A stretch of DNA of 39,592 bases. Origin: Planctomycetia bacterium. Lineage in GTDB: Bacteria; Planctomycetota; Planctomycetia; Gemmatales; Gemmataceae. A program made the position numbers and the translations under genes. The notes beneath the pieces were generated by a model. That model did no database searches. It was not told the origin of the DNA and saw only the letters and a list, made by a program, of their open reading frames with translations. Each line of letters starts with the position of its first letter. Position 1 is the stretch's first letter. The stretch is from NCBI GenBank assembly GCA_031441625.1, contig JANNQE010000485.1, forward strand, positions 1 to 39,592, given 5' to 3'. Positions 10,048-30,844 of this stretch are shown here, one piece after another.

Positions 10048-11616
10048 CTACGGAAGCGGATCGCCCGCCGACGGGCACACGCGGTACACGTCGTCGGCCA
10101 CGGCGCGGGCGAAGGCTTCCACCTCCCCACGGCCGAACGCATCGGGCGAGCGGCTGCCGATGAGCACGACGAGCCGACCCGCCGGCTCCGACGGCGGGTC
10201 GGACCACCGAGCGGCGGCCCGGCTCAACAGGTGATCCAGTCGCAACCCGGCTTGTGCCTCGGATTCGTCGGCCGGCCCCCACACCCGTCGGCCGGTCTGC
10301 GTCCAGTAGAGTACGTACAGGTCGCCGCCCGCTCCGCTCAATGCCCGCGACGTGACCGGCAATTCCCCCCCGCCGCGCGGCGTCATGTTCACCACACCCC
10401 GACTGGTCTCGCGGTAGCCGACGTTCGGCAAGCAGATGTCCGGGTGGTGGTAGCCGCGGACGGCGTGGGCGGAGGTCCAGTAGATGACCCACACCGTCGC
10501 CGAGCGGCCGAGCGGGTTGCGGTACTCGCGGTGGATGATGGCGTCGGGTTGAAGTAACTCGGTCACGTGCGGCGGCACCGGCGGGCGGGCGACTTCGGCC
10601 CACTCGCCCAGTGTCGGCGACAGGTCGTCGAGCGGCGGCGTGGGGACCGGCGGCGGCACGAGCGTGCGTCCGTGCCACACCACCAGTGCAGATGCGACGA
10701 GGGAGATGGTCAACACGATGGCGACGAACCACGGCGATGCGGGCAGTGGGCCAGTGGCAACAAGTGGTTCGATCGGTTGCGGCTTCGGTGCCACGCACTT
10801 CGCCAGCAGCCACACCACGCCCAGCCCGACCAGCACCGTGCCGAAGCCGAGGGCGTCGTGCCACCCGCCGCGGATGAACTCCGCACCCGCCGCCTCCTGA
10901 ATCACCCCGCTGAGCGTCACCCGCAGCACGTTCACCCCCACCACCACCGGCACCGCCGCGGCGACGAGCAGCACGCCCCGCACCACGCCGAACCGCTTCC
11001 AGAAGGCGACGAACGCCGCGACCGCCGTGAGCGCCGTCAGCGCCTTCACCCCGCTGCACGTCTCCTCGATTCCGAGTTCGCCGCCGGGCAGGACGAGCAG
11101 GAACCCGCCGGGCGGTCGGGTGAGCGGATACCCGCAGGCCGTCAGCACCCACGCGGAGGCGTCCGTCGTCACCGCCTGCAAGCGCTGTTGGATGACGTGC
11201 AGGACCGATTCCGGCGGGGGGAGTGCGAAGGCGACGAAAGCGAGCGGGAAGAGCACCTTCACCACCGCCCGCGGGCCGAACGCGGCGAGCAGCCAGCCGA
11301 CGGCCGCGAGCGTGAGGGCCAGCCACAGCACCCAGAACGGCACACTGCGGGCGTTGAACAGGACGAAGTACCCGGCCCAGCCGACGGGGTACAGCACGGC
11401 ACCGAGGGACGTGAACAGCCCGCCGACGAACGGCCGAGGGGTGGTGGTGGTTACTTCACGCCAGCGCGCGACCGCCGCCAGAATTACACCCGCGAGCACG
11501 AGATAACGGTCCACCGCCGACAGGTCGGCCCGCCAATGGCCGACCACCGCCGCGACCAGGCCGGCGTACCCCGCCGCGAGCACGGCGGGCGGAACGAACT
11601 GGCGGAGGCGGGTCAC
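10048..11616 (-). CDS. Exosortase fused to a C-terminal EpsI-family domain
   Basis: I split this from track ORF 10048-12528 at the in-frame GTG 11616, which forms a GTGA overlap with the upstream stop. It is polytopic. Exosortase catalytic motifs are present: ETCSGVKAL (Cys), NVLRVTLSG (Arg), GGWHDALGFG (His). The C-terminal soluble part has the EpsI-like GYHHPDICLPNVGY motif. Confidence 0.8.
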   Translation of the reverse strand: MTRLRQFVPPAVLAAGYAGLVAAVVGHWRADLSAVDRYLVLAGVILAAVARWREVTTTTPRPFVGGLFTSLGAVLYPVGWAGYFVLFNARSVPFWVLWLALTLAAVGWLLAAFGPRAVVKVLFPLAFVAFALPPPESVLHVIQQRLQAVTTDASAWVLTACGYPLTRPPGGFLLVLPGGELGIEETCSGVKALTALTAVAAFVAFWKRFGVVRGVLLVAAAVPVVVGVNVLRVTLSGVIQEAAGAEFIRGGWHDALGFGTVLVGLGVVWLLAKCVAPKPQPIEPLVATGPLPASPWFVAIVLTISLVASALVVWHGRTLVPPPVPTPPLDDLSPTLGEWAEVARPPVPPHVTELLQPDAIIHREYRNPLGRSATVWVIYWTSAHAVRGYHHPDICLPNVGYRETSRGVVNMTPRGGGELPVTSRALSGAGGDLYVLYWTQTGRRVWGPADESEAQAGLRLDHLLSRAAARWSDPPSEPAGRLVVLIGSRSPDAFGRGEVEAFARAVADDVYRVCPSAGDPLP

Positions 11617-12974
11617 GGCTTCTTCGGCTCGTCCTTCTTGGCGGGCAACTTCTTCGCCACGTCGTCCAGCAGTGCCTTCGCGTCGGCACGGTAAATGAAC
11701 ATGCCGTGCCTCACGCCGAGTGCGCCCGTCAGCAACTTGTGCGCGTCCTCGTGCTTCTGCTTGTCGGCCAGCAGTTTGGCGACGAAGTACGCACCGTCCG
11801 AACTCACCTGCCCGCCGCTGAGCACCGTCGCCAGTGCCCGCTCCGCGTCGTCCGCACGCCCCAGTTTGTACAGGCACCAGCCGAGAACGGCGTACCCAGC
11901 CGCCCCCTTCGGGTTCTGCTTCACCAGCGTGTCGGCCAGCTCCGCCCCCCGCTTCCGCTTCTTCTCGTCGCCCGTCTCGCACAGGCACAGGCAGAGGAAT
12001 GAGAGCGAGTTCAGGTCGCCGGGGGCGTCCTTGGACACGCCTTCGAGCAGCGGCTCGGCGGCGGTCGCGTCCTTCTTGTGTAGCAGCCAGATGGCCCGCG
12101 CCACGGTCGTCTCCTTGCCGCTCGGGTCGAGTTTGCCGGCCGCCTCGATGTACGGCCCGGCCGCGTCCGTCTTGCCCGCGTTCAGCAGCCACAGCCCGTA
12201 CTCCCGCGGCGGCTTGGCGCTCTTCGGGTGGGCGGTCACCGCCTTCTGAAGCCACCCCTCCACCTTCTCGAAGTGGGCGGCCTGCTTGGCGGCGTCGGGT
12301 TCGGCGACGGCCCGCAGTTGCCACTGGTTGGCCAGTTGCAGTTCCGGCGGATCGACACTCGGGTCGTCGGCGAACGCCTGCGTGTACTCCTTCTCCGCCT
12401 CGGCCGGCTTGTCCAGGCGGAACACGGTCGTCGCCAGCCGGCTCCGCATCACGCCGTTCTTCGGGTCGGCGTTCAGCACCTCCAGCGCGTACTCCTTGGC
12501 GGCCGGGTAGTCGCCGCGGGCGAAGCACGTTTCGATCAGCCCGCTCCGCGCTTCACGGGCGAACCGCTTCTTCTGGTCGGCGTCCCAGCGGGCGTCGGCG
12601 GACAGTTCGAGAGCCGCCTTCAGGTTCAGCACCGCATCCGTCAGCCGCCCCTCGCCGAACGCGAAGTTGGCGTTCAGCAGGTAGCCTTCCGGGTGCTTCG
12701 GGTCTTCGACGATGGCCTGCTCGACGAGTGCCCGTGCCCCCTGCCCGTTGCCCGCCTGAAAGAGCCACTGCGCCACCTGCACCTTCGGCGGCGACAAATT
12801 CGGGTTCGTCTTGCCGGCCTTCGCCAGCTTGTCGAGCGCGTCGGGCACCTTGTTCGCCTTGAACAGCTCGAACGCCTGTTCCAGTTCGGTCGGCGTGGCC
12901 GGCTTCGGCGGCGGCGGCGTTTGTGCGAACAGCGGGGCCGCGAGCAGCAGGCACACCAGTGCGGAACGGGTCAC
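11613..12974 (-). CDS. Secreted TPR-repeat protein (PrsT-like context)
   Basis: Start re-called at GTG 12974 (VTRSALVCLLLAAPLFAQ signal peptide), forming a GTGA overlap with the upstream stop. Helical TPR-like repeats run throughout. The tail is Lys-rich. Confidence 0.75.
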   Translation of the reverse strand: MTRSALVCLLLAAPLFAQTPPPPKPATPTELEQAFELFKANKVPDALDKLAKAGKTNPNLSPPKVQVAQWLFQAGNGQGARALVEQAIVEDPKHPEGYLLNANFAFGEGRLTDAVLNLKAALELSADARWDADQKKRFAREARSGLIETCFARGDYPAAKEYALEVLNADPKNGVMRSRLATTVFRLDKPAEAEKEYTQAFADDPSVDPPELQLANQWQLRAVAEPDAAKQAAHFEKVEGWLQKAVTAHPKSAKPPREYGLWLLNAGKTDAAGPYIEAAGKLDPSGKETTVARAIWLLHKKDATAAEPLLEGVSKDAPGDLNSLSFLCLCLCETGDEKKRKRGAELADTLVKQNPKGAAGYAVLGWCLYKLGRADDAERALATVLSGGQVSSDGAYFVAKLLADKQKHEDAHKLLTGALGVRHGMFIYRADAKALLDDVAKKLPAKKDEPKKP

Positions 12975-15079
12975 GGGGTCTCTCGCAGGGTGGCGGGGAG
13001 GGCGTTCAGGTCGTCGTCGTCTTGCGGGGTGCGGGGCAGGCGGCGGGCGGCGGCGACGAGCGGCCGGCCGCGGGCGGTGTCGGTGCGGGTGTGATACGCG
13101 AGCGCCAGGTGAACGCACACGGCGGCGGACGGCGGGCCGAGCGTGCGGGCCGCTTCGAGCGTGGCGATCGCCGCGTCGGTCTGCCCGTTCGCCAACTGCA
13201 CCAGACCGACGACGGCCAACTGCTCGCCGGTCAGGAGTCCGCCGCGGTCGCGCGTGTCGAGCAGCGGGGCCACGTCCTTCATTGCCCGCACCGGGTCGTT
13301 CAATCCCTTCAGCCGCAGGCGACCGAGCATCGCGGCGGTGTCGGCGTCGTCGGGCGCGATGGCGCGAACCCGCTCCAGGGCGAAGGCCGCCTCGCGGGTG
13401 CGCACCGGCTCCCAGCGGGGGCTGCCGTACTCGGCCCAACGAGACAGCAGCACCGCACGAGCGGCGAGTGCGTCCGCGTCGGTCGGCCACCGCAGCAGCG
13501 TGCGGTCGAGCAACTTCAGCGCGTGCGGGGCCAACTCCGCATCGAACGCGGTGTCGGTCAGACCGCGAACCGCCGCCGCCGCGACCGCCGCGTTCTCCCG
13601 CTTCTCCACCCGTTCGAGCCAGTCGGGGAGCAACACACCCAGCCCGGCGTCACGCACCGCACGGGTGTAAATGCGGACGAGCAGCGGCTCGGCCAGGACC
13701 GCCGGCTCGCCCAGGTCGCGGAGCCGCTGCACCGCCCCGTGCGTGTCGCCGGCCTGAAGTTTCAGCCGTACGTCCAGCCGGATGACGCGCGGGTCGGTGG
13801 GGGCAACGGCCGCCGCGTGGCGGAGGGCGATGGCGGCCACGTCCCGCCGCGGGGCGTCAAGGGCGGTCTCGGCGACGAGCAACAGCAGTTGAAGGTTCGT
13901 CGGGTCGGCGGCGGCGGCGGCGGCGAGTGTGCGGAGCGCGTCGTCGGTGCGGTCGGTCGCGCGGAGGAGCAGGGAGTAGAGCGCGAGCAGGCCGGCGTCG
14001 TTTCCGCACGCCTTCAGCCCGGCCCGCACTTCGTCCACGGCCGCCGGCAAGCGGTTCGCCCGCACTTCCGCTTGCGCCAGCCCGTGGTACGCCGCGGCGG
14101 TGGTCGGCGACAGGTCCTTCACCCGCCGCCACACGCGGGCGGTGCGGGCATCGTGCTCCTTCGCCAGCCCGTCCCTCTGCTCGGCGGTCATCTGCTTCGC
14201 CCGGTGCAGTCGGTCGATGGCGGCCGTCAGCCGGTTGCACGACGTGCCGAGCCGAGTGAGCACCGCCGCATCGTCCGACTGCGCCGCGGCGTCGGCCAGT
14301 CGCACCACGGCGGCAATGGCGCTCCCCAGGCGGGCGGGCGGCGGGTCGTCGAACCCGAGCAGGTAGCAGTCGATCAACTCCACCTTCACCGCCGGCGGGT
14401 CGTCGTCCACGCTCGGCGAGTTCAGCACATCGACGACGACATCGTTCACGAACCGGCGGAGCGGGGTGGTGTCGCGTCCGGTGCGGCGGAACAGGTCGTG
14501 CGCGAGCAGTAGGCCGGCGGGCGTGGGTCCACCGGCGGCCGGGTCGGGCAGGCGGTCGAGTTCCGCACGAGCGGTGGTCGGGTCGCCGGCGGCGGTTGCC
14601 GCAAGGGCCACCAGACACCTTGAAATCCAGTCGTCCGGCTCGTGAACCAGCCGCTTGCGGGCTTCGCGGGCGGCCTCGGCCCAACGCCCGCGGCGGGCGT
14701 GCAGGGTGGTCGTCAGCAGGCACAGCCGCGGGTCGTCGGGCGGGGCTTCACCGCTGGAAATGGCTTCGCGGTAGCGGTCGCACAGCGGGTCGGCGGTGAG
14801 CGTGGAAATGGTGTCGAGCGCCGACCACATCTCGGTCTCGTCACCCGCTCGCGCCGCCTTGTCGAACCGCGCCCACTGTTCCACCGCCGCCTGCGCCCGC
14901 TGCCGCTGATCCAGTTTGTTCACCACGACCACCGCACCGATTCCACCGGCGACGACCCCCAGCAGTAGCCCCACACCGACCGCCCACCGCACCCACGGGC
15001 GGGCGGCGCGGACGCGGTCCCACAGGCGGGCGAACCAGCCGGGGCGTGCGGGCGAAGTGGTCGGCGGGGGTACAGCCAT
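12971..15079 (-). CDS. Membrane-anchored TPR-like helical-repeat protein
   Basis: 702 aa. It has a single N-terminal TM (WAVGVGLLLGVVAGGIGAVVVV) followed by Ala/Leu/Arg-rich helical repeats. Confidence 0.7.
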   Translation of the reverse strand: MAVPPPTTSPARPGWFARLWDRVRAARPWVRWAVGVGLLLGVVAGGIGAVVVVNKLDQRQRAQAAVEQWARFDKAARAGDETEMWSALDTISTLTADPLCDRYREAISSGEAPPDDPRLCLLTTTLHARRGRWAEAAREARKRLVHEPDDWISRCLVALAATAAGDPTTARAELDRLPDPAAGGPTPAGLLLAHDLFRRTGRDTTPLRRFVNDVVVDVLNSPSVDDDPPAVKVELIDCYLLGFDDPPPARLGSAIAAVVRLADAAAQSDDAAVLTRLGTSCNRLTAAIDRLHRAKQMTAEQRDGLAKEHDARTARVWRRVKDLSPTTAAAYHGLAQAEVRANRLPAAVDEVRAGLKACGNDAGLLALYSLLLRATDRTDDALRTLAAAAAADPTNLQLLLLVAETALDAPRRDVAAIALRHAAAVAPTDPRVIRLDVRLKLQAGDTHGAVQRLRDLGEPAVLAEPLLVRIYTRAVRDAGLGVLLPDWLERVEKRENAAVAAAAVRGLTDTAFDAELAPHALKLLDRTLLRWPTDADALAARAVLLSRWAEYGSPRWEPVRTREAAFALERVRAIAPDDADTAAMLGRLRLKGLNDPVRAMKDVAPLLDTRDRGGLLTGEQLAVVGLVQLANGQTDAAIATLEAARTLGPPSAAVCVHLALAYHTRTDTARGRPLVAAARRLPRTPQDDDDLNALPATLRETP

Positions 15080-15095: not shown

Positions 15096-16322
15096 TCAGG
15101 TCATGGTAGGGCGGTCTGCGGTGCGGCGGAACACCTCGACAAGTTCACGGGTGAAGCGACCTTCATCGAACGCACGCAATGCCGTTTCCCGGGCGGCGAG
15201 TCCGAGCCGGGTTCGCAGCGCCGTGTCCGTCACCAGTCGGTGAATCGCGGCCGCGAGCGCATCGACATTGCCAGGCGGGTGGCCGATGGCATCCACCCCG
15301 TCGGTGAACAGCTCCACCGCCCCGCCCGCCGCCGACACCACCATCGCACGCCCGCAACTCATGGCTTCCGCGATCGTCAGGCCGAATGGCTCCGGGCGGG
15401 TGCTGGCGTGAACCACCACGTCGAGCATCCGGTAGACGTCCACCGGGTCGGGTTGAAACGGCACGAACTCCACGCGGCCGATCAGCCCGAGTCGGTCGGC
15501 CATTCGCTCCAACTCAACCTGCGTCCACTGCGAGCCGGCGGTGGTGTAGATCGGCCCGCCGACGATGTAGCCCCGCACCCGCAATTCGAGTGGCAACCGG
15601 GCGAGCGCGTTCAGGAAGACGGCGTGCCCCTTCCAGTTCGCGTACGTGGCGACGAGGCCGACGCGGATCACACTTTCCGGTGGCACAGGCATTCCTGCCT
15701 GTGGGAGAGGATCACAGGCAGGAATGCCTGTGCCACCGGCGGGTGCGAAGTGTGCCGTGTCCACGCCGTTCCGCACCACAGAAATCGGCACGCCGGGGAG
15801 CAGCGTCTCCGTGTCTCGACGCACGGCGTCGGAGATCGCCACGGCCCCGGCCACGCCACGCTTCGCCATCTCCAGCAGCCGGGCCATGAGCGGCCGCTCG
15901 GAATAGAAGTCGTGAACGTGCCACGAAATGGGCACCCCGGCCGGCACCGTCACGCGCGCCAACAGGTGCGTTTTCAGGCCGTTGGAATGCACCAACTGAG
16001 GTCGCAGGCGGCGGAGGAGTGTGCGAAATCGGCGGAGGTAGTTCGCGGCGGGAAGAGCGGAAGTGAACGCCGTGCGTGCGAGTGCGAACCCCTTCGCGGC
16101 CCGCCCGCCGTCGCGGAACTGCGTGTCGCCCACTGCCGCCAACGCCGGCGGTAGCGGCAGCACGTCCACCGTCGCGCCGGCGTGTTCGAGTGCCGCACGC
16201 AACGGCCCGTCGGCGAGCAGCACCACCGCGGGGTGATGTTCGCGGACGGCACGCACGGCGGCGAGCAGCACCCGCTCGGCCCCGCCGACCTGCCCGGCCG
16301 GGTTCAGGAAGACGACCCGCAC
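15096..16322 (-). CDS. Glycosyltransferase family 4 (GT-B)
   Basis: Start re-called at GTG 16322 (VRVVFLNPAGQVGGAER), with GGGGAG upstream. The EX7E region is STRPEPFGLTIAEAMSCGRAMVVS. It contains the palindromic insert at 15677-15739. Confidence 0.8.
   Translation of the reverse strand: MRVVFLNPAGQVGGAERVLLAAVRAVREHHPAVVLLADGPLRAALEHAGATVDVLPLPPALAAVGDTQFRDGGRAAKGFALARTAFTSALPAANYLRRFRTLLRRLRPQLVHSNGLKTHLLARVTVPAGVPISWHVHDFYSERPLMARLLEMAKRGVAGAVAISDAVRRDTETLLPGVPISVVRNGVDTAHFAPAGGTGIPACDPLPQAGMPVPPESVIRVGLVATYANWKGHAVFLNALARLPLELRVRGYIVGGPIYTTAGSQWTQVELERMADRLGLIGRVEFVPFQPDPVDVYRMLDVVVHASTRPEPFGLTIAEAMSCGRAMVVSAAGGAVELFTDGVDAIGHPPGNVDALAAAIHRLVTDTALRTRLGLAARETALRAFDEGRFTRELVEVFRRTADRPTMT
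15677..15739. repeat. Perfect 27-bp inverted repeat with a 9-nt loop (63 nt) embedded in-frame in the GT4 gene
   Basis: CCGGTGGCACAGGCATTCCTGCCTGTG (15677-15703), loop GGAGAGGAT, then CACAGGCAGGAATGCCTGTGCCACCGG (15713-15739). Each arm is also internally self-complementary (CACAGGCA-GGAA-TGCCTGTG). Confidence 0.95.
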
Positions 16323-17449
16323 GGCAACTCCCCATTCAGGATGCGACGGTACGCCGCGGCAATAGTGCCGGCGTGATTCGCCCAACTGTACCGGCTCGCC
16401 CAGGCGATGCGAGGCGTGAGGTCGACGAGCGGGTGGTTCAACAACTCCTGGACGGCTTCGGACCACGCCGGCACGTCGCCCACCGCGCGATACGTCACCA
16501 CCTCGCCGCCCACTTCGCAGAGCGCCGGCAGGTCGCTGGCGACCACCGCCGCCCCGCACGCGAGTGCCTCGATCACCGGCAGGCCGAACCCCTCGGCTTC
16601 GCTCGGCACCAGCACCACGGGCGCCCGCCGATACACCTCGGCGAGTTCGGTTCGGCTGACGCCGGACTTATGTAGGACGGCGTTGTTCAGCCCGAGACGG
16701 TTCAACTGCTCGCGGTGCCCGGCCGTCCACTCGCCGCCCACCTTCACCAGCGTCAGTTCCGGCACCGTCCGCCTCACCTCAGCCACCACGTCGAGCAGCA
16801 CGTCGATCCGCTTCCGCGGGATGCAACTGCCGACGTGCATCACCCACGGCCGGCCGGCGAGGTCGTCGAGCCACGGAACAGGAACTTCGGGATTCGCACG
16901 CGGGGTGAACTCGGCGGCCACGCCATACGGTGCGGACACCAGCTTCGCCGGATCGACGAGACCGTACCGCTTCAACTCGTCGCCCACTGCGGTCGTGCTG
17001 TGAAACACCACCGCCGCTTTCTGTAGGCCTGCAAGTGTGCGACGGGCGAGTCGGCGGAACCACCTCGGCCGCGGGTCACGGGGCGGGTCGAGCAGACAAC
17101 GGAAGGCATCGAGGTCGTGGCAGTACACGCCGGTACGTGCGGCCGGCAGCGCGTGCACGAGTTGGGCGTAGGAGTGATCGACGACGTGAAACAGTTCGAA
17201 CCGATTCGCTTCACTCCGAGCGTACTTCGGAAACGTGACGAACCGATTCAGCAGCCGGTCGGCGTTGAACGCGGCGTTCCGCTTCCCCAGCGTCGGCAAC
17301 CGGGTGAAGACGCGACGAAACGGCGGACAGACGCGCTCGGCGGACACATCGCCGGGCAGATGTGCCGTCAGCATGTCCGCGCACAGGTCCATGCTCGGCC
17401 ACCCTTCGGCCGGGAAGTCGGGCAGCACGGCGAGGCGGGCGGGAATCAC
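16304..17449 (-). CDS. Glycosyltransferase family 4 (GT-B)
   Basis: Start re-called at GTG 17449 (VIPARLAVLPDF), forming a GTGA overlap with the SET gene stop. The signature is PSEAEGFGLPVIEALACGAAVVASD. Confidence 0.8.
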   Translation of the reverse strand: MIPARLAVLPDFPAEGWPSMDLCADMLTAHLPGDVSAERVCPPFRRVFTRLPTLGKRNAAFNADRLLNRFVTFPKYARSEANRFELFHVVDHSYAQLVHALPAARTGVYCHDLDAFRCLLDPPRDPRPRWFRRLARRTLAGLQKAAVVFHSTTAVGDELKRYGLVDPAKLVSAPYGVAAEFTPRANPEVPVPWLDDLAGRPWVMHVGSCIPRKRIDVLLDVVAEVRRTVPELTLVKVGGEWTAGHREQLNRLGLNNAVLHKSGVSRTELAEVYRRAPVVLVPSEAEGFGLPVIEALACGAAVVASDLPALCEVGGEVVTYRAVGDVPAWSEAVQELLNHPLVDLTPRIAWASRYSWANHAGTIAAAYRRILNGELPCGSSS

Positions 17450-17885: not shown

Positions 17886-18968
17886 TCACGACCGGGTCAG
17901 CACGCGGGCGAGGACATCGCCCACCCGCGGGGCGAGTGAGTCGTATTCGAAATGCCGCCGTGCCATCGCGACACACTCCGGGCGGTGAGAGAAATCGGTG
18001 CCCCGTTGCACCAGTTCCACCACCCGTTCGGCCAGCCTCGTCGGGTACTCGGGGTCGGTTTCCCCCCGAAATTCGACCAGCATCGGCGGGGGCAGGATGC
18101 GGGCCGCTTCGCCCACACGGCTGGCGAGCACGAACCGCCCGGCGGCCAGGTAGAGCGGTAGTTTGCCGGTCGTCCGCACGTTCCCGATCACGTCGTTCGA
18201 TTGCGTGGAGAGGGCGATGTCGATCTCACGCAGACGGGCCGGCAGGTCGGAGTACGACACACGCCCGGCAAACTCGATGAGGTCAGAAACGCCCGCCTCG
18301 GCCGCTCGCCGTTTGAGGATGTCGATCCCACTCCCGTCGCCGATCATCACCCCGCGGACCGGAAACCGCCCCTTCAACGCGCCGAGCAGTTCGACCAGTT
18401 CCAGGCCGTAGCAACTTTGCCGGCTCGATACCCACACCGAGCTGCCGACCACGCCAATGGTCAGCGGACGAGTGGTTTTCAAGGGTGGAGTCGCGGGTGC
18501 GAACCGATCCACGGAGACCCCGTCCGGGATGAAGGTGGCGTTTACACCGCGACGGCGGAGCAGTTCACGGTGCAGGCTGCCGCGGACGACCACCGCCGAC
18601 GCCGCACGGAGGGCGTACGCTTCCACCGCGCGGGTGGCGGTCATTCCCACCACCCCGCGGCCGAGCACCCGGCCGAGTTCGACCACCGCGTCGCCGGTGT
18701 CCAACACGAACGGCGTCCCCAGGGCGTGCTTCACCACCCCGGCCGCGACCACGCCCGCCGCGGCGAGGTCGAGGACGTAACACACGGCGGGGCGGAGGGC
18801 GGACAACTCCCACACCATCCCGCCGAGTGCCCGCGCTCCCCGGTCTGGGCGGAACACGAACCGGCAATCGAACCGGCCGGCCAGCCGGGACGCGAACGCG
18901 GCGGCCCGCTCGCCCATCGCTGAGGCCGGGCCGCCGTTCACCACGAACGCCACCCGCGGGCGGGTCAT
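17886..18968 (-). CDS. Glycosyltransferase (GT-B fold, GT1/GT4-like)
   Basis: Start re-called at ATG 18968 (MTRPRVAFVVNGG), forming an ATGA overlap with the upstream stop. It has a two-Rossmann-like layout. The signature is weaker than in its neighbours. Confidence 0.6.
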   Translation of the reverse strand: MTRPRVAFVVNGGPASAMGERAAAFASRLAGRFDCRFVFRPDRGARALGGMVWELSALRPAVCYVLDLAAAGVVAAGVVKHALGTPFVLDTGDAVVELGRVLGRGVVGMTATRAVEAYALRAASAVVVRGSLHRELLRRRGVNATFIPDGVSVDRFAPATPPLKTTRPLTIGVVGSSVWVSSRQSCYGLELVELLGALKGRFPVRGVMIGDGSGIDILKRRAAEAGVSDLIEFAGRVSYSDLPARLREIDIALSTQSNDVIGNVRTTGKLPLYLAAGRFVLASRVGEAARILPPPMLVEFRGETDPEYPTRLAERVVELVQRGTDFSHRPECVAMARRHFEYDSLAPRVGDVLARVLTRS

Positions 18969-22400: not shown

Positions 22401-23488
22401 ATGTCGGCACCCATGTACGCCGCCAAACACCGCCGCACCACTGCCGGCCAGGTGAACCGCTCCAGCACCCGCACCCGGCCGGCGTCACCCATTCGCCGGG
22501 CATCTTCCTGGTGATCGCGGAGCCATTCCAGCTTCGCCCGCAGTGCCGCCGGGTCGTTCGGTGGGACGACGAACCCGGTCACCCCGTCGGCCACTACTTC
22601 GGGCAGGCTGGCCACGTCCGTCACGACCGCCGCCGCCCCGCAGGCCATCCCTTCGAGTGGCGTTTGCCCCAGAAGTTCCGGCACCCTGGACTCGTTCCCG
22701 TAACAGTCGCGGTAAACGCTCGGGAGCGCCACGCACATCGCCCGGCGATAGGCACGCACCACCTCGGCATCGTCGCAATCCTGTCGGAACACCACCCGCT
22801 TGTCGGTGGCCAGTTTCCGCAACTTGGCGTGGTACGGTTCGGAATATGGACGACCAATGACTTCCAGTTTCAATCCAGGCGGAAGGGCTTCGACTAGCAC
22901 ATCAATCCCTTTGTGCGGCAACAGCCGACCGACGAACACGACGAGCGGCTCGCGTGGCACGTCCGGGTCCGGCGAGAACTTGTCGGTGTCCACCCCGCCG
23001 AGAATCACCCGATGCCGCGGGTCGGCGGTCCCGCCGGCGAGCGCCCGGCTGTACTCGCTGATGTGTAGGTGGCCGTGAAACCAGTCGGCGGTCTTCAACC
23101 GTGCCCCGAGGCACCACCCGCCGCCGCCGAGGTCGGAGGCGAACACTCGCCGCCCGCTCAGCCGGCCGAGCAGGGCGGCCAACTCCGACGCCAGGACGTT
23201 CGTCTGGTGGGCGTGGACCACTTCGGCCGACGCCACCGCACGGACGAGGCCGGGGTGCAGCGGGTTCGATGGCTGCCCGCGAACGGCCCACGCCGGCCCG
23301 AGCACCCGCACCCGCAGCCCGTCGGCGGTGGTGAACCGCTCCGCCCGGTCGCCGAACGACACCAGCGTGGTGGGCACGACACGGGCCATGTGCCGGGCCA
23401 ACTCGAACGCATACCGCTCGCCCCCGCCGTACACCCCACCGCGGCCGAACAGGGCGGGGGTCAAGTGGGTGACACGAGGGCGGTTCAC
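22397..23488 (-). CDS. Glycosyltransferase family 4
   Basis: Start re-called at GTG 23488 (VNRPRVTHLTPALFGRGGVYGGGERY), a GTGA overlap. Supporting motifs are VFVGRLLPHKGID and LLGQTPLEGMACGAAAVVTD. Confidence 0.8.
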   Translation of the reverse strand: MNRPRVTHLTPALFGRGGVYGGGERYAFELARHMARVVPTTLVSFGDRAERFTTADGLRVRVLGPAWAVRGQPSNPLHPGLVRAVASAEVVHAHQTNVLASELAALLGRLSGRRVFASDLGGGGWCLGARLKTADWFHGHLHISEYSRALAGGTADPRHRVILGGVDTDKFSPDPDVPREPLVVFVGRLLPHKGIDVLVEALPPGLKLEVIGRPYSEPYHAKLRKLATDKRVVFRQDCDDAEVVRAYRRAMCVALPSVYRDCYGNESRVPELLGQTPLEGMACGAAAVVTDVASLPEVVADGVTGFVVPPNDPAALRAKLEWLRDHQEDARRMGDAGRVRVLERFTWPAVVRRCLAAYMGADI

Positions 23489-24243
23489 GAACGCCCCCAC
23501 ACACGACGAAGGCGATTCGTGGCGCGAGCGATTAACCCGGTCACCCCGCCGATGGCGTTCTCGGCCCTCAACCGCCAGCGGGGGTACGGGTGGTAGCGGT
23601 TCACGAATCTCTCCAGTTCGGCGGCCGTGTTCTCCAGTCCGTGAACCGTGACCTCGGAGAACCGGAACTCGTTTTCCCAAAACAGCCACGTCACCTTCCG
23701 TTCGTCCGTCAACCGGCGAAAGTAAGACGGCGGCAGGTTGAACCGCGGGTGCGCGTGAATCATGTGGAACTTGGGAATGAACCGGACGGCCGCGGCGATC
23801 TCGTCTGTGTCGATGAGCCAACGATGGTGCGACAGTCCGGCGGTTCGGTTCGACTCCCACCCGCGGCACGTTTCGGCCACCCGTGACGGCACCTCGATGT
23901 ATCCCCTCTTGGCGACCCGAATCATCTCCGTGCACACCCACAGCGGGTCGCGGATGTCTTCGAGCACGTGCGAGCAGATGACGAAATCGATCTCCTTGTC
24001 GCGGAACGGGAGCGGGTCGGCGCAGATGTCGAGTCGGTGCCATGTGTCAGCAGTGAAGTGCTCCACGTCCCCGCCCTGGCTCCCGGGCAGGCCGACCGTC
24101 TTGTAATACCCGCGGGTTTGGTACGGTTCGGCGTCCACCACATGATCCGCCCGGTTGAACGGACACGCCCACCCGCCGATGTCGAGCACCACGTCGGACG
24201 GGCCGACCCGTCGCAGGATTTCGGCTTCATTCGGCGGAAACAT
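23485..24243 (-). CDS. Class I SAM-dependent methyltransferase
   Basis: Start at ATG 24243 (MFPPNEAEIL), with GTG 24249 as an alternative. Motif I is VVLDIGGWACP. A Methyltransf_11-like IDFVICSHVLEDI motif is present. It overlaps the wzt 3' end by 17 nt. Confidence 0.75.
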   Translation of the reverse strand: MFPPNEAEILRRVGPSDVVLDIGGWACPFNRADHVVDAEPYQTRGYYKTVGLPGSQGGDVEHFTADTWHRLDICADPLPFRDKEIDFVICSHVLEDIRDPLWVCTEMIRVAKRGYIEVPSRVAETCRGWESNRTAGLSHHRWLIDTDEIAAAVRFIPKFHMIHAHPRFNLPPSYFRRLTDERKVTWLFWENEFRFSEVTVHGLENTAAELERFVNRYHPYPRWRLRAENAIGGVTGLIARATNRLRRVWGRS

Positions 24244-25507
24244 ACTCACCCCCCCCGTCGAGAGCCCGCACCGCCCAGTCGAACTGGCCGAGGACGGCAC
24301 CGCGCGACATGGCGGCCTCCGGAGCCGGGTGGGGGTACGGCATCACCGGCAGCACCTGGAATTGGCACGCCCGCTCGAACCGATCGACCACCCCCACGTG
24401 CCCGTCCACCATGAACAGGTCGATCGAGTAGTCGCCCGGCTTCAGCCACGGGGCGTGGATGGTCAACTCCCCCTCGGCTTCGCCGTGCGGCAGGTCGAGC
24501 GGGGGGCCGACGAACCGCGAATCGCACTGGCACAGCAGGCCGCCGGCGGCATCGTTCAGGTGCGCGGAGAGGCTCACCCGCGGCGGGTGCGGGGCCACCG
24601 CGCGGACTCGGAAGGTGACCACCTTCGGCTCGTCCGGGCGGTACTGCGTGCGGTCCGGCGCGGCGTGGGTGAACCGCACCTCTCCGCTGCCCGGTCGCCG
24701 GCCGAAGTCATCCGCCTCGCCGGTCGCCGACTCCAGCGACCGATAGTAGTGGGCGACGCCCCCCACCGCCCCTCCCTGGTACTCGATCCGCCCACGAGCA
24801 AACACGCACACCGACGAGCAGAGGGCGGTGATGGACTGCATGTTGTGGCTGACCACCAGCACCGTCCGTCCTCCCTTTGCGACCTCGCCCATCTTGCCGA
24901 GGCACTTCTTCTGGAACTCGGCGTCGCCGACGGCCAGCACCTCGTCCACCACCAGGATTTCCGGCTCCAAGTGCGCCGCCACCGCGAACGCCAGGCGCAC
25001 GTACATGCCACTGCTATATCGCTTGACCGGCGTGTCCAGGAACTTCTCCACCTCCGCGAACGCCACGATTTCATCGAACTTTCGCACGATCTCGGATCGC
25101 CCCATGCCCAGGATCGAGCCGTTCAGGTAGATGTTCTCCCGCCCGGTCAACTCCGGGTGGAAGCCGGTGCCCACCTCCAGCAGGCTGGCCACTCGCCCGT
25201 TCAGCGTCACCCGGCCGGTCGTCGGTTCCGTGATCCGGCTGAGGATCTTCAGCAGCGTGCTCTTGCCCGCCCCGTTCCGCCCGATGATGCCCACCACCTC
25301 GCCCGCGTTCACCTCGAAGGTCACGTCCTTCAGTGCCCAGAACTCCTCGCGGGTCGGGGGCGAGTTCTTCCGCCGGAACAGCCCGAACCCGCTCTTCACC
25401 CCGTCGGCCAGCACGTCCCGGAGCGCGCGATACCGCGGCCCGCCGGCGGAGTGCCGCAGCAGGTACTTCTTGCCCAGTCCTTCGACACGAATGATCGGTT
25501 CGGGCAT
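24227..25507 (-). CDS. wzt: Polysaccharide/O-antigen ABC exporter ATP-binding protein with a C-terminal extension (Wzt-type)
   Basis: Walker A is GIIGRNGAGKSTLLK. The signature YSSGMYVRLAFA is typical of Wzt/TagH. Walker B is ILVVDEVLAVGD. About 180 extra C-terminal residues are consistent with a Wzt_C glycan-binding domain. Confidence 0.9.
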   Translation of the reverse strand: MPEPIIRVEGLGKKYLLRHSAGGPRYRALRDVLADGVKSGFGLFRRKNSPPTREEFWALKDVTFEVNAGEVVGIIGRNGAGKSTLLKILSRITEPTTGRVTLNGRVASLLEVGTGFHPELTGRENIYLNGSILGMGRSEIVRKFDEIVAFAEVEKFLDTPVKRYSSGMYVRLAFAVAAHLEPEILVVDEVLAVGDAEFQKKCLGKMGEVAKGGRTVLVVSHNMQSITALCSSVCVFARGRIEYQGGAVGGVAHYYRSLESATGEADDFGRRPGSGEVRFTHAAPDRTQYRPDEPKVVTFRVRAVAPHPPRVSLSAHLNDAAGGLLCQCDSRFVGPPLDLPHGEAEGELTIHAPWLKPGDYSIDLFMVDGHVGVVDRFERACQFQVLPVMPYPHPAPEAAMSRGAVLGQFDWAVRALDGGGEYVSAE

Positions 25508-25510: not shown

Positions 25511-26338
25511 TCAGATGACGTCCGCAAAGGTCCGCTCAGTCCGGCGGAAGTACCACACCCCGACGAGGAGGGCGGTGAGAGTCACGGCTAGGGAGAGGAG
25601 CCAGCCGCCGCCGGCGAACGGGTCGCCGACGCCGAGCAGGCTCCACCGCAGGCCGTCGATGACGAACACCATCGGGTTCAAATGGTATAGCATCTGAAAT
25701 TCGTTCGGCACCTGGGAAGTGGCGTACCCGATGGGCGACACGTACACCCCGAACTGGACGACGAACGGCAGCACGTACCGCACGTCACGGAACTTGACGT
25801 TCAGGGCGCACAGGCCGAACCCGAACCCGAGGGCGGTGGCGACGGCGAGCAGGAGGAAGAGCGGGGCGCACACGACCTGCCACGGCGGCACCAGCCCGGC
25901 GTACACCATCAGGCCGGCCAGGAACGGGGAGAGCACGAGCAGGTCCATCAGTGGCACGCCCAGCCCGCTGAGCGGCACCAGCAGGCGGGGGAAGTACACC
26001 TTCGACACCAGATTGGCGTTCGCCACCAGGCTGTTCGACGACTCCGATAGCACGGCGGCGAACAACTGCCAGCCCATCATGCCGGCGAGCACGAACAGGG
26101 GGTACCAGACACCGCCGTCGGCTTCCAGTTTGGCCACCCGGCTGAACACTATTGTGAGGATGACCACGGTGACGAGCGGGCGGGCGACCGCCCAGCCCGC
26201 GCCGATGACCGTCTGCTTGTAGTGCACGGCCACGTCGCGGCGGGCGAGCTGGAGCAGCAGTTCGCGGAACGTCCACAGGTCGCGCCAGTACTGGCGGTCA
26301 GCGCGTCCGGCTTCGAGGATCAACGGGTGGGGGGTCAC
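25511..26338 (-). CDS. wzm: ABC-2 type polysaccharide exporter permease
   Basis: 275 aa with 6 predicted TM segments. The N-terminal YKQTVIGAGWAVARPL motif is typical of Wzm/TagG. It lies directly upstream of wzt (3-nt gap). Confidence 0.85.
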   Translation of the reverse strand: MTPHPLILEAGRADRQYWRDLWTFRELLLQLARRDVAVHYKQTVIGAGWAVARPLVTVVILTIVFSRVAKLEADGGVWYPLFVLAGMMGWQLFAAVLSESSNSLVANANLVSKVYFPRLLVPLSGLGVPLMDLLVLSPFLAGLMVYAGLVPPWQVVCAPLFLLLAVATALGFGFGLCALNVKFRDVRYVLPFVVQFGVYVSPIGYATSQVPNEFQMLYHLNPMVFVIDGLRWSLLGVGDPFAGGGWLLSLAVTLTALLVGVWYFRRTERTFADVI

Positions 26339-27654
26339 GGGCGTTCACTCGGGCGGGGGGCGAGGACGAGAGGCGGGGGGCCGACCGCGGGCGTCGCCAG
26401 CACGCCCATCATGACGAGCAGCAGCACCGAAGACGGCACCGACGACAGGAGGCCGGTGCCGATGAACGCCGTCCCCCAACTGCTGACCACGACCGCGTAC
26501 ATGAGCAGGCGGCCGAGCTGCCACGGCACGCCGAACGCGGCCGACGGCACCCGCACCACCAGCCAGCCGACAAAGGTCAGCCACAGGCCCAGCCCCACCC
26601 ACCCCTGATCGACCGTGATGCGGCTCAGCTCGTTCTCCAGACCCACCTGGGTGGGCGCTCGGTCGGACAGGAAGTACGGGATGCTGGTGCCCACCGACGA
26701 CCCCATGCCGGCCCCGAGCGGGTAGTCCACCAGCAGGTCCAGGAAGGTCTCGTTCACGCTCCCGCCCACCCGCCGGGCGACCGCCTCGGTGTCGTCCAGG
26801 GTGGCCGCCCGTTGCAGCCGCTCGGACGTGCTCGCCAGCCCCACCCCCGCCGCCACCAGGACGGCCACCGCCAGCCCCACCCACAGAGAGAAGCGGCTGC
26901 ACACCCACGCCACCACGAGTGCCACGGCGAGGATGATGAGCGGGCTACGGGCGGCACACAGCAGCAGGCCGGCGACCGCCGCCGCCACCCCGACCGCCGC
27001 CGGCAGGCGGTCGAACACCCCCGCCCCGCGTCCGAACAGGCGGTCGAGCAGGAACGGCAGCGTGGCCAGCATGGTGCCGCCGTAGCTGTGCGCGTTCAGG
27101 AAGGTGCTCGGGATGCGGAAGGCGGTGTACCCGGCCACGTCGCCCGACCGGTACATGATCTCCGTCACCGCGTTCTTGGGAAACACCGCCTCGATGCCGT
27201 TCTGGAACTCGTACACGGCCACCGCCAGGGCCACCAGATTCATCCCCCCGAGCGTGCGGGCGAGGGCGGTCAGGTCGGCGTCCGTCATCCGGCTGGCGAC
27301 GAGCACGACGGGCAGGAACCAGACGGTGCCCCGCAGGGCGACCAGTTGCACCAGGTAGTCGTTCACCGGGATGACGGCGAGCACGGCCGGCCACGCGGTC
27401 AAGAGGAGGACGAACACGCCGACGGCGGACCGCACGAGCGGGCCGAGCCGCCGCCCGTGGAAGGCGAACAGGCCGGCGTACAGGCCGAGCAGGGCGGCGT
27501 CGAACATGAACGTGCTGAACACGCCCAGGAAGTTGGCCCGCACGACGCCGTTGAAGTAACCGACGGCCACCACCGCCGCCAGCCCCCACCCGAGCGAGCG
27601 GGCGGAGGCGAGCAGGGCGAGGGCGAACGCGGCCAACGGAAAGAGTAGGTCCAT
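26335..27654 (-). CDS. O-antigen ligase / polymerase-like polytopic membrane protein (Wzy_C-like)
   Basis: 439 aa with about 10-12 hydrophobic segments and one larger loop. The call rests on position in the glycan operon and an ATGA overlap with wzm. I cannot distinguish ligase from polymerase. Confidence 0.55.
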   Translation of the reverse strand: MDLLFPLAAFALALLASARSLGWGLAAVVAVGYFNGVVRANFLGVFSTFMFDAALLGLYAGLFAFHGRRLGPLVRSAVGVFVLLLTAWPAVLAVIPVNDYLVQLVALRGTVWFLPVVLVASRMTDADLTALARTLGGMNLVALAVAVYEFQNGIEAVFPKNAVTEIMYRSGDVAGYTAFRIPSTFLNAHSYGGTMLATLPFLLDRLFGRGAGVFDRLPAAVGVAAAVAGLLLCAARSPLIILAVALVVAWVCSRFSLWVGLAVAVLVAAGVGLASTSERLQRAATLDDTEAVARRVGGSVNETFLDLLVDYPLGAGMGSSVGTSIPYFLSDRAPTQVGLENELSRITVDQGWVGLGLWLTFVGWLVVRVPSAAFGVPWQLGRLLMYAVVVSSWGTAFIGTGLLSSVPSSVLLLVMMGVLATPAVGPPPLVLAPRPSERP

Positions 27655-27657
27655 GGT

Positions 27658-28509: not shown

Positions 28510-29615
28510 AGTCTCCGCGCGAGTAAATCCCCGCACCAGCGGATCGTGACCTCCGGGTCGCACAACTCACGGGCGCGTGCCGGGCCGCGGTCGCCCAACT
28601 GCCGCCGCCGGGCCGGGTCATTCAACAGACCCCGTAGCGCGTCGGCGACCGCGACCGTGTCCCCCGGCGGGGTGAGCACCCCGCACGTGCTGTCCACGAT
28701 TTCGAGCGCCCCGCCGATGGCCGACGTGACCACCGGCAGCCCGGCCGCGAGCGCTTCGACGAACGCCAGCCCGAACGACTCCGGCCCGGTGTTCGGCTGA
28801 CACAGCACGTCGGCCGACACCAGCAGCCGCGGCACGTCCGACCGCTGACCGGCGAATCGCACGCGGTTCGCAAGCTCCAACCATTCGATCGTCGCCTTCA
28901 ACCGCCCCGCCTTGGCCACGTCCGCCGGACTCGTCGTCCCGCCGACCACCCACGCCACCCACCCGGCGACATCCCGCAAGCGGCCGAGTGCGTCGAGCAA
29001 CTCCGCGTGCCCCTTCAGCCACTCCAGCCGGCAGGCCATCAGGATGACGACGGCATCCGCGGGCGTGTCGAACTCCGCCCGCACTGCCGCCCGGGTGCCC
29101 TCACGGTCTGTCGGCAGATCCACCTGCACCGGCAGGTACGCCACGTCCGTGCGCACGCCGGGGAACAGCGTCGGCACCGACGCAGCGGTGAACCGGCTAT
29201 TGGCGATCACCCGTTCCGGGCGGGTGCGGGCGGCCCAGCGGTCGAGCAAATTCGGGCGGGCGAACGGGCCATGAGCGAAGAACACCAGCCGCACGCCGGC
29301 CGACTTCACCACCGGGCTGAAAATCAGGTGATTCCACCCGCTGTGAACCACCACCACGTCGGGCCGGCGGTCGGCCAGCACCTTCGTCAGTGCCCGACGT
29401 GCCCGTAGCACTGTCCACGGCCGGCTGACCCGCACCGCCCCCAGATCGTGAACCGGCACACCGACGGCGGTCAGTTCGTCCCACACCCGCCCGCGGAAGC
29501 ATAGCCCGAATTCGGTTTCCATGTCGGGCGTGATGTGCCGCAGTCTCGCCAGGGTGACGAAGAACGTCTCCACCCCGCCGAACAGGTTGCCCGCGCCCAG
29601 GTGCAGTACCTTCAC
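28506..29615 (-). CDS. Glycosyltransferase family 4
   Basis: The N-terminus is MKVLHLGAGNLFGGVETF. The signature is QPNTGPESFGLAFVEALAAGLPVVTS. It has an ATGA overlap with the upstream gene. Confidence 0.85.
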   Translation of the reverse strand: MKVLHLGAGNLFGGVETFFVTLARLRHITPDMETEFGLCFRGRVWDELTAVGVPVHDLGAVRVSRPWTVLRARRALTKVLADRRPDVVVVHSGWNHLIFSPVVKSAGVRLVFFAHGPFARPNLLDRWAARTRPERVIANSRFTAASVPTLFPGVRTDVAYLPVQVDLPTDREGTRAAVRAEFDTPADAVVILMACRLEWLKGHAELLDALGRLRDVAGWVAWVVGGTTSPADVAKAGRLKATIEWLELANRVRFAGQRSDVPRLLVSADVLCQPNTGPESFGLAFVEALAAGLPVVTSAIGGALEIVDSTCGVLTPPGDTVAVADALRGLLNDPARRRQLGDRGPARARELCDPEVTIRWCGDLLARRL

Positions 29616-30844
29616 CGCGTCACCTCGGGGCCAATCACCGAGCGGTACACGTCCAGGCTCCGCTCGCCCATTGTCAGCCAGTCGAACTCGCCGGCACGCG
29701 CCACCGCGGCGGCGGACAGGCGATCACGCAAGCCCGGCTCCTCGACCAACCGGCGAGCGGCGGCGGCGAACGCGGCGGGGTCGTTCACCGGTACCGTTAG
29801 CCCTTCCTGTTCATTGCGGCACACCCAACTCACCCCGCTCGCGGGGATGGCGGTGTTCAGCACCGGGCACCCGCACGCCATCGCTTCCACCTGCACCAGC
29901 CCGAACCCCTCGCTGCGGGCGTTGCTCGGGAACCACAGGGCGGTCGCGGCCATGTAAGCCCCGGTCAGTTCGTCGTCGGTCGCCCGGCCGAGCCACCGCA
30001 CGCGGTCGCCCAGCTTCAACTCTTCGGCCCTTCGTTTCCATGCCGCTTCCATCGGACCGGTGCCGACGACCAGCAGCGTGCCCGGAGTGCGAGTCAGAGC
30101 GTCGAGTGCGGTGTCGAGTCCCTTGTAGTAGATGAGCCGGCCGACGGACAACCAGAGGGGGGGCGTGAATTCGGCGTGAAGGCGGGCGGCGAACGCCACT
30201 GCCGTCGCCGACGGGGTGCGAAACGGTGCAAGGTCGAGGCCGAGCGGCAGCGGCGTCACCCGGCTGCGGAAGGGGGCGAGTGTGGGCGAGCCGTCGATGT
30301 ACGGCGGGCTCGTGGGCAGGAGGCGGGTGGCCCGGCGGTACAGGGCTTGTTCGAGCGGGCGGACGAAATGCCGAAGCACCCGCTGGCGGACGATGTCCGA
30401 GTGGTGCGTAATTACGAGCGGGCGGATGCGGCGGTCGGCGAGGACGGCCAGCATCATGGTCACGTTCGGCGCGTGCAGGTGCCACACGTGCGGGCGGAAC
30501 TCGCGGCGGACGTGCGTGAGGAGTTGTGGCAACCCTGGGCACACGTCGAGCTTCGCCACGTTCGCCAGCCGGCCGACGCGGTGAATCAGGATCTCGCCAT
30601 CGCGATCGGTCGCGTCCTGGGTGCGGGCGAGGCGTTCGAACGTGACATCTTTGCCAGACGCGTCGGCGTGGTTCACCACCACCACCCGCACGTCGGCCCC
30701 GAGCCGCACTTGGGCGCGGGCGAGCGTCTGCGTGTGCGTCTCGATCCCGCCGGCGGCGGGTGGGTAATACTTCCCCAGGTGAACTATGCGAACCACCACT
30801 CCCCCCGGGCACAAACGAGCTGTCAGTGGGGGCAATCCGTGCAT
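29612..30844 (-). CDS. Glycosyltransferase family 4 (first gene of the array)
   Basis: The N-terminus is IVHLGKYYPPAAGGIETH. The signature is PSNARSEGFGLVQVEAMACGCPVLNT. The start is uncertain: ATG 30844, or GTG 30799/30796. The track start at 30907 is unlikely. Confidence 0.75.
   Translation of the reverse strand: MHGLPPLTARLCPGGVVVRIVHLGKYYPPAAGGIETHTQTLARAQVRLGADVRVVVVNHADASGKDVTFERLARTQDATDRDGEILIHRVGRLANVAKLDVCPGLPQLLTHVRREFRPHVWHLHAPNVTMMLAVLADRRIRPLVITHHSDIVRQRVLRHFVRPLEQALYRRATRLLPTSPPYIDGSPTLAPFRSRVTPLPLGLDLAPFRTPSATAVAFAARLHAEFTPPLWLSVGRLIYYKGLDTALDALTRTPGTLLVVGTGPMEAAWKRRAEELKLGDRVRWLGRATDDELTGAYMAATALWFPSNARSEGFGLVQVEAMACGCPVLNTAIPASGVSWVCRNEQEGLTVPVNDPAAFAAAARRLVEEPGLRDRLSAAAVARAGEFDWLTMGERSLDVYRSVIGPEVTR

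Follow-up and report, generated by a model that had tools for sequence, protein, structure and literature searches.

An exosortase module joined to an ABC-type glycan cluster in a Gemmataceae contig: a probable composite of two normally separate modules

Exosortase genes are nearly always found among polysaccharide genes, and both EpsH-EpsI fusions and a tetratricopeptide repeat (TPR) partner protein, PrsT, are part of this picture (Haft et al. 2006, PMC1569441). The exosortase-linked clusters described so far (methanolan, zooglan and those of Sphingomonadales) are Wzx/Wzy-dependent (bioRxiv 10.64898/2025.12.21.693542 for zooglan and Sphingomonadales). Here we analyse a row of 18 genes in a 39,592-nucleotide stretch of Gemmataceae DNA (GCA_031441625.1, contig JANNQE010000485.1; the whole stretch is referred to as the window), in which genes for glycan assembly and for export by a Wzm/Wzt-type ATP-binding cassette (ABC) transporter directly precede a trio of two TPR proteins and an exosortase-EpsI fusion. 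We consider it probable that the row is a composite operon of two normally separate modules, and that glycan production and PEP-CTERM processing are jointly expressed in this clade.

Loci of the XrtA/PEP-CTERM type resemble the window in having an exosortase among glycosyltransferase (GT) and polysaccharide genes, an EpsI fusion and a TPR partner in a sediment or soil organism, and in having PEP-CTERM substrates that are mostly encoded elsewhere. In contrast, XrtA loci encode Wzx/Wzy with a chain-length regulator and an outer-membrane export protein, whereas the window encodes a Wzm/Wzt ABC transporter, lacks a PrsK/PrsR pair and has two TPR proteins instead of one lipoprotein. An assignment of the window to the XrtA/PEP-CTERM type-1 exopolysaccharide systems was rejected: the XrtA, PrsT and stp glycosyltransferase models scored far below cutoff, and PrsK/PrsR and Wzx/Wzy/PCP/OPX were absent.

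ABC-dependent O-polysaccharide clusters that make a capped chain, of the E. coli O8/O9a type, combine the family 4 (GT4) mannosyltransferases WbdA-C, the methyltransferase terminator WbdD, Wzm and a Wzt with a C-terminal binding domain; the gene for the initiating transferase lies outside them, and a protein of the O-antigen-ligase type is needed after export. The window shares with them the many GT4s, the methyltransferases, Wzm and a Wzt with an extra C-terminal part, putatively Wzt_C-like. It differs in having a putatively ligase-like gene inside the cluster, FkbM and SET methyltransferases, an acyltransferase and an appended exosortase module, and in having no sugar-nucleotide genes. The lack of a phosphoglycosyltransferase is not unusual, because O8/O9a-type clusters keep their initiating transferase outside. 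A more distant analogy is offered by type IX secretion, in which the PorU sortase cleaves a C-terminal signal and joins the protein to an anionic lipopolysaccharide (LPS) of an O-antigen-type pathway (PMC7468200). The window has no homology to that system, and the parallel is purely conceptual. To our knowledge, no attachment chemistry has been described for exosortases. A pairing of an exosortase with Wzm was not found in the literature searched, in which works naming exosortase, ABC transporter and O-antigen together were not compared, and the pairing of an exosortase with ABC export appears to be undescribed so far.

Gene content and packing of the row

The genes of the row (g1 to g18) and the acyltransferase gene beside it are listed below by window position; g1 to g15 and the acyltransferase gene form module A, and g16 to g18 form module B. 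Homologous loci in other assemblies are numbered L001, L002 and so on.

30973..32064, plus strand: Acyl_transf_3 membrane acyltransferase (PF01757, 65.8 bits), divergent from g1; part of module A
29612..30844, minus strand: g1, GT4 glycosyltransferase, 410 aa (Glycos_transf_1, 103.8 bits, and Glyco_trans_4_4); 79% orthologue in L084
28506..29615, minus strand: g2, GT4 glycosyltransferase, 369 aa (Pfam); 80% orthologue in L148
27658..28509, minus strand: g3, FkbM-family methyltransferase, 283 aa (PF05050, 47.9 bits; TIGR01444, 71.2 against a cutoff of 37.7)
26335..27654, minus strand: g4, polytopic membrane protein, 439 aa, of a putatively Wzy_C-related family (family-level Wzy_C matches)
25511..26338, minus strand: g5, Wzm-like ABC-2 permease, 275 aa (PF01061, ABC2_membrane, 59.3 bits)
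24227..25507, minus strand: g6, Wzt-like ABC ATPase with a C-terminal extension, putatively of the carbohydrate-binding type, 426 aa (ABC_tran, PF00005, 81.4 bits)
23485..24243, minus strand: g7, class I S-adenosylmethionine (SAM) methyltransferase, 252 aa (Methyltransf_11, 27.4 bits against a cutoff of 21.2)
22397..23488, minus strand: g8, GT4 glycosyltransferase (Pfam); 82-84% orthologues in L084 and L148
21213..22400, minus strand: g9, GT4 glycosyltransferase (Pfam)
20095..21216, minus strand: g10, GT4 glycosyltransferase (Glyco_trans_4_4, 57.1 bits)
18965..20098, minus strand: g11, GT4 glycosyltransferase (Pfam); 75% orthologues in L144 and L087
17886..18968, minus strand: g12, divergent GT-B-like protein, sub-threshold (Glyco_trans_1_4, 26.4 against a cutoff of 27); orthologues in L117, L107 and L100
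17446..17844, minus strand: g13, SET-domain methyltransferase, 132 aa (ATG 17844) or 147 aa (GTG 17889) (PF00856, 35.1 against 22.4)
16304..17449, minus strand: g14, GT4 glycosyltransferase (Pfam); orthologues in stand-alone GT arrays and beside the exosortase trio
15096..16322, minus strand: g15, GT4 glycosyltransferase (Pfam), last gene of module A
12971..15079, minus strand: g16, TPR protein with one N-terminal membrane helix, 702 aa (TPR Pfam matches), first gene of module B
11613..12974, minus strand: g17, secreted TPR protein with signal peptide, 453 aa (TPR_19, 76.5 bits; N-terminus MTRSALVCLLLAAPLFAQ)
10048..11616, minus strand: g18, exosortase fused to EpsI, 522 aa (PF09721, 123.4 bits; PF11984, 78.1 bits)

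Listing of open reading frames (ORFs) and inspection of start codons showed that the minus strand between 30844 and 10048 carries 18 genes in succession, with no gap larger than 41 nucleotides (nt), as an earlier note on this DNA had described. The GC content of the window is ~70%. Eleven junctions are 4-nt ATGA or GTGA overlaps (at 29612, 28506, 26335, 23485, 22397, 21213, 20095, 18965, 17446, 12971 and 11613). The earlier note had counted twelve; the twelfth, at 17886 between g12 and g13, requires the SET gene to start at GTG 17889, and a start at ATG 17844 leaves the 41-nt gap instead. The ATG is the preferred prediction, and with it the gap, because alignments with homologues start at residue 15/16 of the longer form and the orthologue in L144 is called as 132 aa. 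The two longer overlaps that had been reported were found at g6/g7 (17 nt) and g14/g15 (19 nt), and the small gaps measure 3, 3 and 16 nt, the last of these between g15 and g16. Genes overlap at 13-14 of the 17 junctions in the row; the flanks have seven junctions between genes on one strand, and no overlap occurs at any of these (Fisher p = 0.001-0.0003). The gene calls of relatives are packed in the same way, and for both the exosortase (522 aa) and g4 (439 aa) the gene calls in the database are identical to the gene models used here. Scans of 9500-29400 gave no sigma-70 promoter and six terminator-like sites against 8.6 expected, none above chance; both are uninformative for a planctomycete of 70% GC. 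An Rfam search of the window returned no RNA family, and a tandem repeat search nothing relevant.

Pfam and NCBIfam scans bore out the FkbM, class I SAM and SET methyltransferases, the two TPR proteins and the exosortase-EpsI fusion of the earlier note. Its nine GT-B glycosyltransferases became eight clear GT4 proteins (g1, g2, g8, g9, g10, g11, g14 and g15), each with Glycos_transf_1 and a Glyco_transf_4-type N-domain above cutoff, plus g12, which falls just below threshold (in NCBIfam, TIGR04063 at E 3e-12, under cutoff). The export module is of the Wzm/Wzt type, as had been proposed, with an ABC-2 permease adjacent to an ABC ATPase inside the glycosyltransferase cluster. The best NCBIfam matches were galactan Wzm and KpsM for g5, and TagH and galactan Wzt for g6, all below the equivalog cutoffs. 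PF14524 (Wzt_C) is assigned to P0314, an 88% homologue of g6, and to several others (precomputed matches, marked weak).

The WaaL/Wzy-like identity given to g4 in the earlier note applies to its family and not directly to g4. A profile search of 1.84 billion representatives returned 586 representative clusters at E<=1e-3, a compact family of Planctomycetota, in which Wzy_C was matched by 5 of 24 close and 27 of 33 diverse members (best E 1.1e-10). By this family-level transitivity g4 is predicted to be Wzy_C-related, a level at which ligase, polymerase and protein-glycosylase roles are indistinguishable. The protein collection contains g4, and an exact look-up of it in the contig index gave no match. 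Searching PDB sequences with alignment profiles of g4 and of the exosortase gave no meaningful match.

The SET protein g13 has the motifs NH..PN and ELTIDY and belongs to a protein-lysine methyltransferase fold, which is unusual in a glycan or sorting operon. Its orthologues (78-79%) are confined to the close clade (L144, L087 and L007); in L100 and L107 g12 abuts g14 with no room for a SET gene, and none was detected in L149. A 137-aa gene upstream of g14 in L001 was considered as a diverged SET protein and rejected, as no similarity was found. The acyltransferase gene is assigned to module A because its divergent pairing with the g1 orthologue recurs in L084-L086. It probably acts in glycan O-acylation.

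The junction and its two modules in relatives

In six close relatives, whose exosortases are 63-85% identical to g18, g15 directly precedes the trio, mostly with g14 before it (L144/L145, L005, L007, L001/L002 and L006; g14 was not detected in L007). The order in L144/L145 is g11-GT-SET-g14-g15-TPR-TPR-exosortase. In the 70% relative (L001), kinase genes replace the row upstream of g14, and the part with acyltransferase|g1-g2-FkbM-methyltransferase-g4-Wzm-Wzt-GT lies on the same 2.47-Mb contig ~213 kb away. We infer that the fusion of g15 to g16 probably predates this split of module A, because g14-g15 are native to the Wzm/Wzt cluster (L149 and L117) and yet stayed with the trio in L001. Two contigs of one metagenome-assembled genome (MAG; GCA_031414395.1) carry g2-g9 at 68-89% (L148) and g15-TPR-TPR-exosortase at 81-89% (L005). 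Both are broken inside the paralogous GT4 array, where assemblies tend to fragment, and the two halves are compatible with the fused form without being proof of it.

JGI metagenome loci were found through g14 orthologues, and all 18 proteins of the row were mapped onto them. The glycan cluster g8-g15 is collinear in relatives; L149, on JGI contig Ga0194133_10005108, reads Wzm-Wzt-g7-g8-g9-g10-g11-g12-g14-g15, and L117, L107 and L100 are arranged similarly. A copy of module A lies at ~1.98 Mb in Ga0573885_013. Module A is widespread in Planctomycetota, and g4 accompanies Wzm/Wzt in genomes and loci with no exosortase nearby. In at least ten loci the cluster stops at g15, and the unrelated genes behind it encode an acyltransferase, UbiA/HAD, a pseudouridine synthase, NPCBM, an epimerase, an M23 peptidase, a kinase or a symporter. 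The single hybrid system of the earlier note is not what we find: the row consists of two separable modules, the first of which mostly ends at g15. The two halves do occur together outside the window, both at the recurrent junction of the six close relatives and in a 46% relative, where a Wzm/Wzt cluster lies divergent beside the trio.

The trio itself, TPR (~700 aa)-TPR (~450 aa)-exosortase/EpsI, is conserved within Gemmataceae down to ~31% identity. In L003/L008 (~46% identity) it is divergent from a Wzm-Wzt-methyltransferase-epimerase-GT-FkbM-GT cluster. In L142 and L143 (45-47%) its divergent neighbours are GT4/methyltransferase clusters that include a Polysacc_synt (Wzx-type) flippase, and in L031 and L034 GT4 genes like g1/g2 adjoin the trio. 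A glycan cluster thus frequently, though not invariably, adjoins the trio, and its type of export differs between loci. Since the trio occurs with Wzx-flippase clusters in L142 and L143, the ABC route is interchangeable. Judged from these arrangements, the exosortase module follows surface-glycan loci whatever the export route, and the ABC pairing is one interchangeable option and no distinct machine. The organisation, which had been said to look hybrid or undescribed, therefore appears to be new in its ABC pairing as far as the literature searched goes, and the link of exosortases to polysaccharide loci, the EpsH-EpsI fusion and the TPR partner have been known since PMC1569441.

The exosortase signature of g18 is clear (PF09721, 123.4 against 25.7 bits; TIGR04178, 51.4 against 23), as is its EpsI part at residues 301-461 (TIGR02914, 50.6 against 42.8; PF11984, 78.1 against 26.1). 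C187, R232 and H253, which we take to be catalytic from what is known of the exosortase family, do not vary among 19 homologues that are 30-85% identical. All named subtypes (XrtA-XrtY and the cyanoexosortases) were rejected; scores against cutoffs were 114/425 bits for XrtW, 113/400 for XrtD, 84/208 (83.9) for XrtA and 83/313 for XrtV. The 8TM_EpsH subfamily model gave 90 bits against a cutoff of 105.6. The two best-scoring named subtypes, XrtW and XrtD (NF038142 and TIGR04152), are, like g18, long exosortases with a fused EpsI-like C-terminal domain. They differ in that g18 is far below their cutoffs and in that the substrates neighbouring the trio in relatives carry canonical VPEP, not VPLPA. 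Together, these comparisons suggest that g18 belongs to an exosortase/EpsI subtype outside all named classes. The protein g16 has a single transmembrane helix at residues 34-52, and an assignment to PrsT was rejected on scores of 64 bits (g16) and 61 bits against a cutoff of 312.

Scanning of C-termini identified canonical VPEP-helix-Arg tails in proteins encoded beside the trio in five loci:

L036, 3204-5780: PEP-CTERM protein directly upstream of the trio and co-directional with it (TIGR02595, 21.2 bits against 16)
L031, 3206-5839: PEP-CTERM protein, encoded between the TPR genes and the GTs that resemble g1/g2
L025, 8288-9469: PEP-CTERM protein
L037, 15964-17529: PEP-CTERM protein
L022, 14297-19567: PEP-CTERM protein

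Two of the five pass TIGR02595. All have a signal peptide and are rich in Thr/Ser/Gly/Asn; BLAST shows no relation among them, and autotransporter-type beta-strand repeats occur in two. Because canonical tails adjoin homologous trios in five loci, PEP-CTERM proteins are favoured as the substrates of this exosortase clade.

In eight related loci (L003 11701-12255, L142 11737-12300, L143 11704-12258, and also L009, L023, L024, L029 and L033) the gene immediately downstream of the exosortase encodes a specialised NusG paralogue (~185 aa, PF02357/KOW), and none is present in the window. In L027 this gene lies upstream of the TPR pair (4866-5612), and in L089/L090 a homologue is found 5.5 kb downstream from g15. 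The paralogue may serve these long operons as an antiterminator like RfaH. A DDE_3 transposase gene (3714-4847) stands immediately upstream of the NusG-TPR-TPR-exosortase unit of L027, a hint that rearrangement carries the module from place to place.

Proposed mechanism and competing explanations

In the reading that we consider probable, an initiating transferase encoded elsewhere would prime a polyprenyl carrier, and eight or nine GT4-type transferases would assemble the chain in the cytoplasm. The FkbM and class I methyltransferases and the acyltransferase would decorate or cap the chain, which Wzm/Wzt would then export, the C-terminal domain of Wzt probably reading the capped end. On the periplasmic side, the putatively Wzy_C-related g4 would move the glycan to its final acceptor. 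Module B, with its membrane-anchored TPR protein, secreted TPR protein and exosortase/EpsI with intact Cys-Arg-His, would be a protein-sorting unit, in which the exosortase would act on secreted proteins whose genes lie elsewhere in the genome, cleaving their C-terminal PEP-CTERM anchor. Where the modules are fused end to end with a 16-nt gap, in the Fimbriiglobus-like clade, the 18 genes would be co-transcribed, as the earlier note had proposed along with translational coupling, and glycan production and PEP-CTERM processing would probably be expressed together, building one surface layer to which a physical link between glycan and sorted protein may belong.

A number of results weigh against this composite-operon reading. 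Module A stops at g15 in at least ten loci and is followed there by unrelated genes, which makes the link facultative, and in about six loci (L010, L012, L013, L027, L037 and L040) the 4.5-6.5 kb that precede the TPR pair contain no glycan gene. No phosphoglycosyltransferase, sugar-nucleotide gene or PEP-CTERM tail was found in any ORF of the window, as the earlier note had said, so that this sequence does not close the pathway. The runs that contain the window sequence are DNA only, from a freshwater sediment metagenome, with no RNA run among those listed. The match of g6 residues 291-387 to Wzt_C (PF14524) stays below cutoff (25.9 bits, E 1.1e-5, cutoff 30.4). For g4 itself there was no Pfam or NCBIfam family match and no match to PF04932 (Wzy_C) at E<=1. 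The top PDB folds for its AlphaFold (AF2) model (pLDDT 80, pTM 0.86) were RodA/SEDS proteins at modest template modelling (TM) scores of 0.33-0.47 (8tj3_B, E 6.5e-3; 6pl5_A, TM 0.38/0.47), and no WaaL entry was among the 50 best PDB fold matches. SEDS proteins and O-antigen ligases are regarded as remote relatives.

The facultative link would also be expected if the row consisted of two modules with no functional relation. One would be a cluster of the LPS O-antigen type, in which g4 ligates the chain to lipid A-core as WaaL does, and the other a general exosortase module for PEP-CTERM proteins; rearrangement in a variable surface-polysaccharide region would have made them neighbours, and any read-through between them would be incidental. 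The frequent ending of module A at g15, the trios without adjacent glycan genes, the ~213 kb between the Wzm/Wzt part and the exosortase in the 70% relative, and the remoter exosortases, mostly of Verrucomicrobiota, which have neither a TPR pair nor Wzm nearby, all favour such an explanation. It does not readily account for a trio that adjoins glycan clusters of two export types in three or more independent arrangements, for a g15|g16 junction that outlived the split in L001, or for a gap of only 16 nt with no terminator-like site; moreover, exosortases are known to be associated with polysaccharide loci (PMC1569441). On balance we regard it as possible, and clearly less probable than a composite operon. 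An artefact of metagenome assembly at the junction of the two halves is, by comparison, extremely improbable. The source is a sediment metagenome and contigs of related MAGs break inside the GT4 array, but the same junction is present in five other independent assemblies, and in two runs, made from two samples, single Logan contigs (covering 9976-15738 and 13781-15722) cross g15|g16 without differences. Contigs of these runs also span the g12-g14 region, depth is even along the row, and pieces next to the junction contigs are equal in depth, so that a chimera was ruled out as the source of the row. Many short joints in the contig layout matched only 20-22 nt on one side and were taken as k-mer noise from other GC-rich contigs. 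Both metagenome runs differ from the window in g14 (17065 T>A and 17099 A>G), a small strain-level variation.

The role of g4 allows a further alternative, in which it acts as a PglL/PilO-type oligosaccharyltransferase that puts the ABC-exported, carrier-linked glycan en bloc on Ser/Thr-rich PEP-CTERM proteins, which the exosortase then releases. The putative assignment of the g4 family to Wzy_C, which also includes PglL/PilO, and the Thr/Ser/Gly/Asn-rich composition of the PEP-CTERM proteins beside homologous trios speak for this protein O-glycosylation. NCBIfam presumably also holds an exosortase-associated O-glycosylation-ligase family, to which g4 gave no match. Since g4 travels with Wzm/Wzt where no exosortase is nearby and belongs to a family with a far wider distribution than that of the trio, we think this role unlikely.

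Returning to the composite operon, it could be extended by one step: the exported methyl-capped glycan, or a glycolipid that g4 makes from it, would be the acceptor for PEP-CTERM proteins transferred by the exosortase, with the SET enzyme as an extra protein-modifying step. We hold this extension to be improbable. If true, the operon would be a complete 'sortase plus anchor polymer' system for an envelope of the Gram-negative type, and it would reveal the attachment chemistry of exosortases. What exosortases do after cleavage, and why they lie in polysaccharide loci, are questions that date from 2006. This clade is a compact natural experiment, as the same trio occurs with an ABC-type cluster, with a Wzx-type cluster or alone; the varied partners argue that the partner may be 'a surface glycan' and no particular export machine. 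Candidates for testing, in a family with cultured members (Fimbriiglobus and Gemmata), are g4, Wzt and the TPR pair. For annotation, the gain is a putative unclassified exosortase/EpsI subtype, two conserved TPR partners and a putatively Wzy_C-related family of Planctomycetota missed by current models.

Flanking genes and other features of the window

Domain scans found no kinase or regulator, flippase, PCP or OPX domain in the window. Beyond the acyltransferase gene lie typical planctomycete genes (PSCyt2/PSD1, DUF1501, WD40, Kelch and MFS), and the genes downstream of the exosortase are convergent and unrelated to the row. Planctomycete signature genes flank the row on both sides, with DUF1501 at 81-1457 (minus strand) and PSCyt2/PSD1 followed by DUF1501 at 32131-33774 and 33995-35269 (both plus strand). 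These fit a Gemmataceae origin, and the homologues come from Fimbriiglobus, Gemmata and other Gemmataceae MAGs.

A 1156-aa protein with two FtsX permease domains (a MacB/LolE-like double permease) is encoded at 2972-6442 on the minus strand, and no adjacent ATPase was seen in the window. In a gene-poor stretch (~8200-9100) between a nitrilase-like gene and a zinc-ribbon ORF there is a 72-nt direct repeat (8543-8614 and 8636-8707, 78% identity, 93-nt spacing), which has no Rfam match. Adjacent genes for DUF433 (123 aa) and DUF5615/PIN-like (117 aa) proteins, at 6470-7191 on the minus strand, overlap by 4 nt and are probably a toxin-antitoxin pair.

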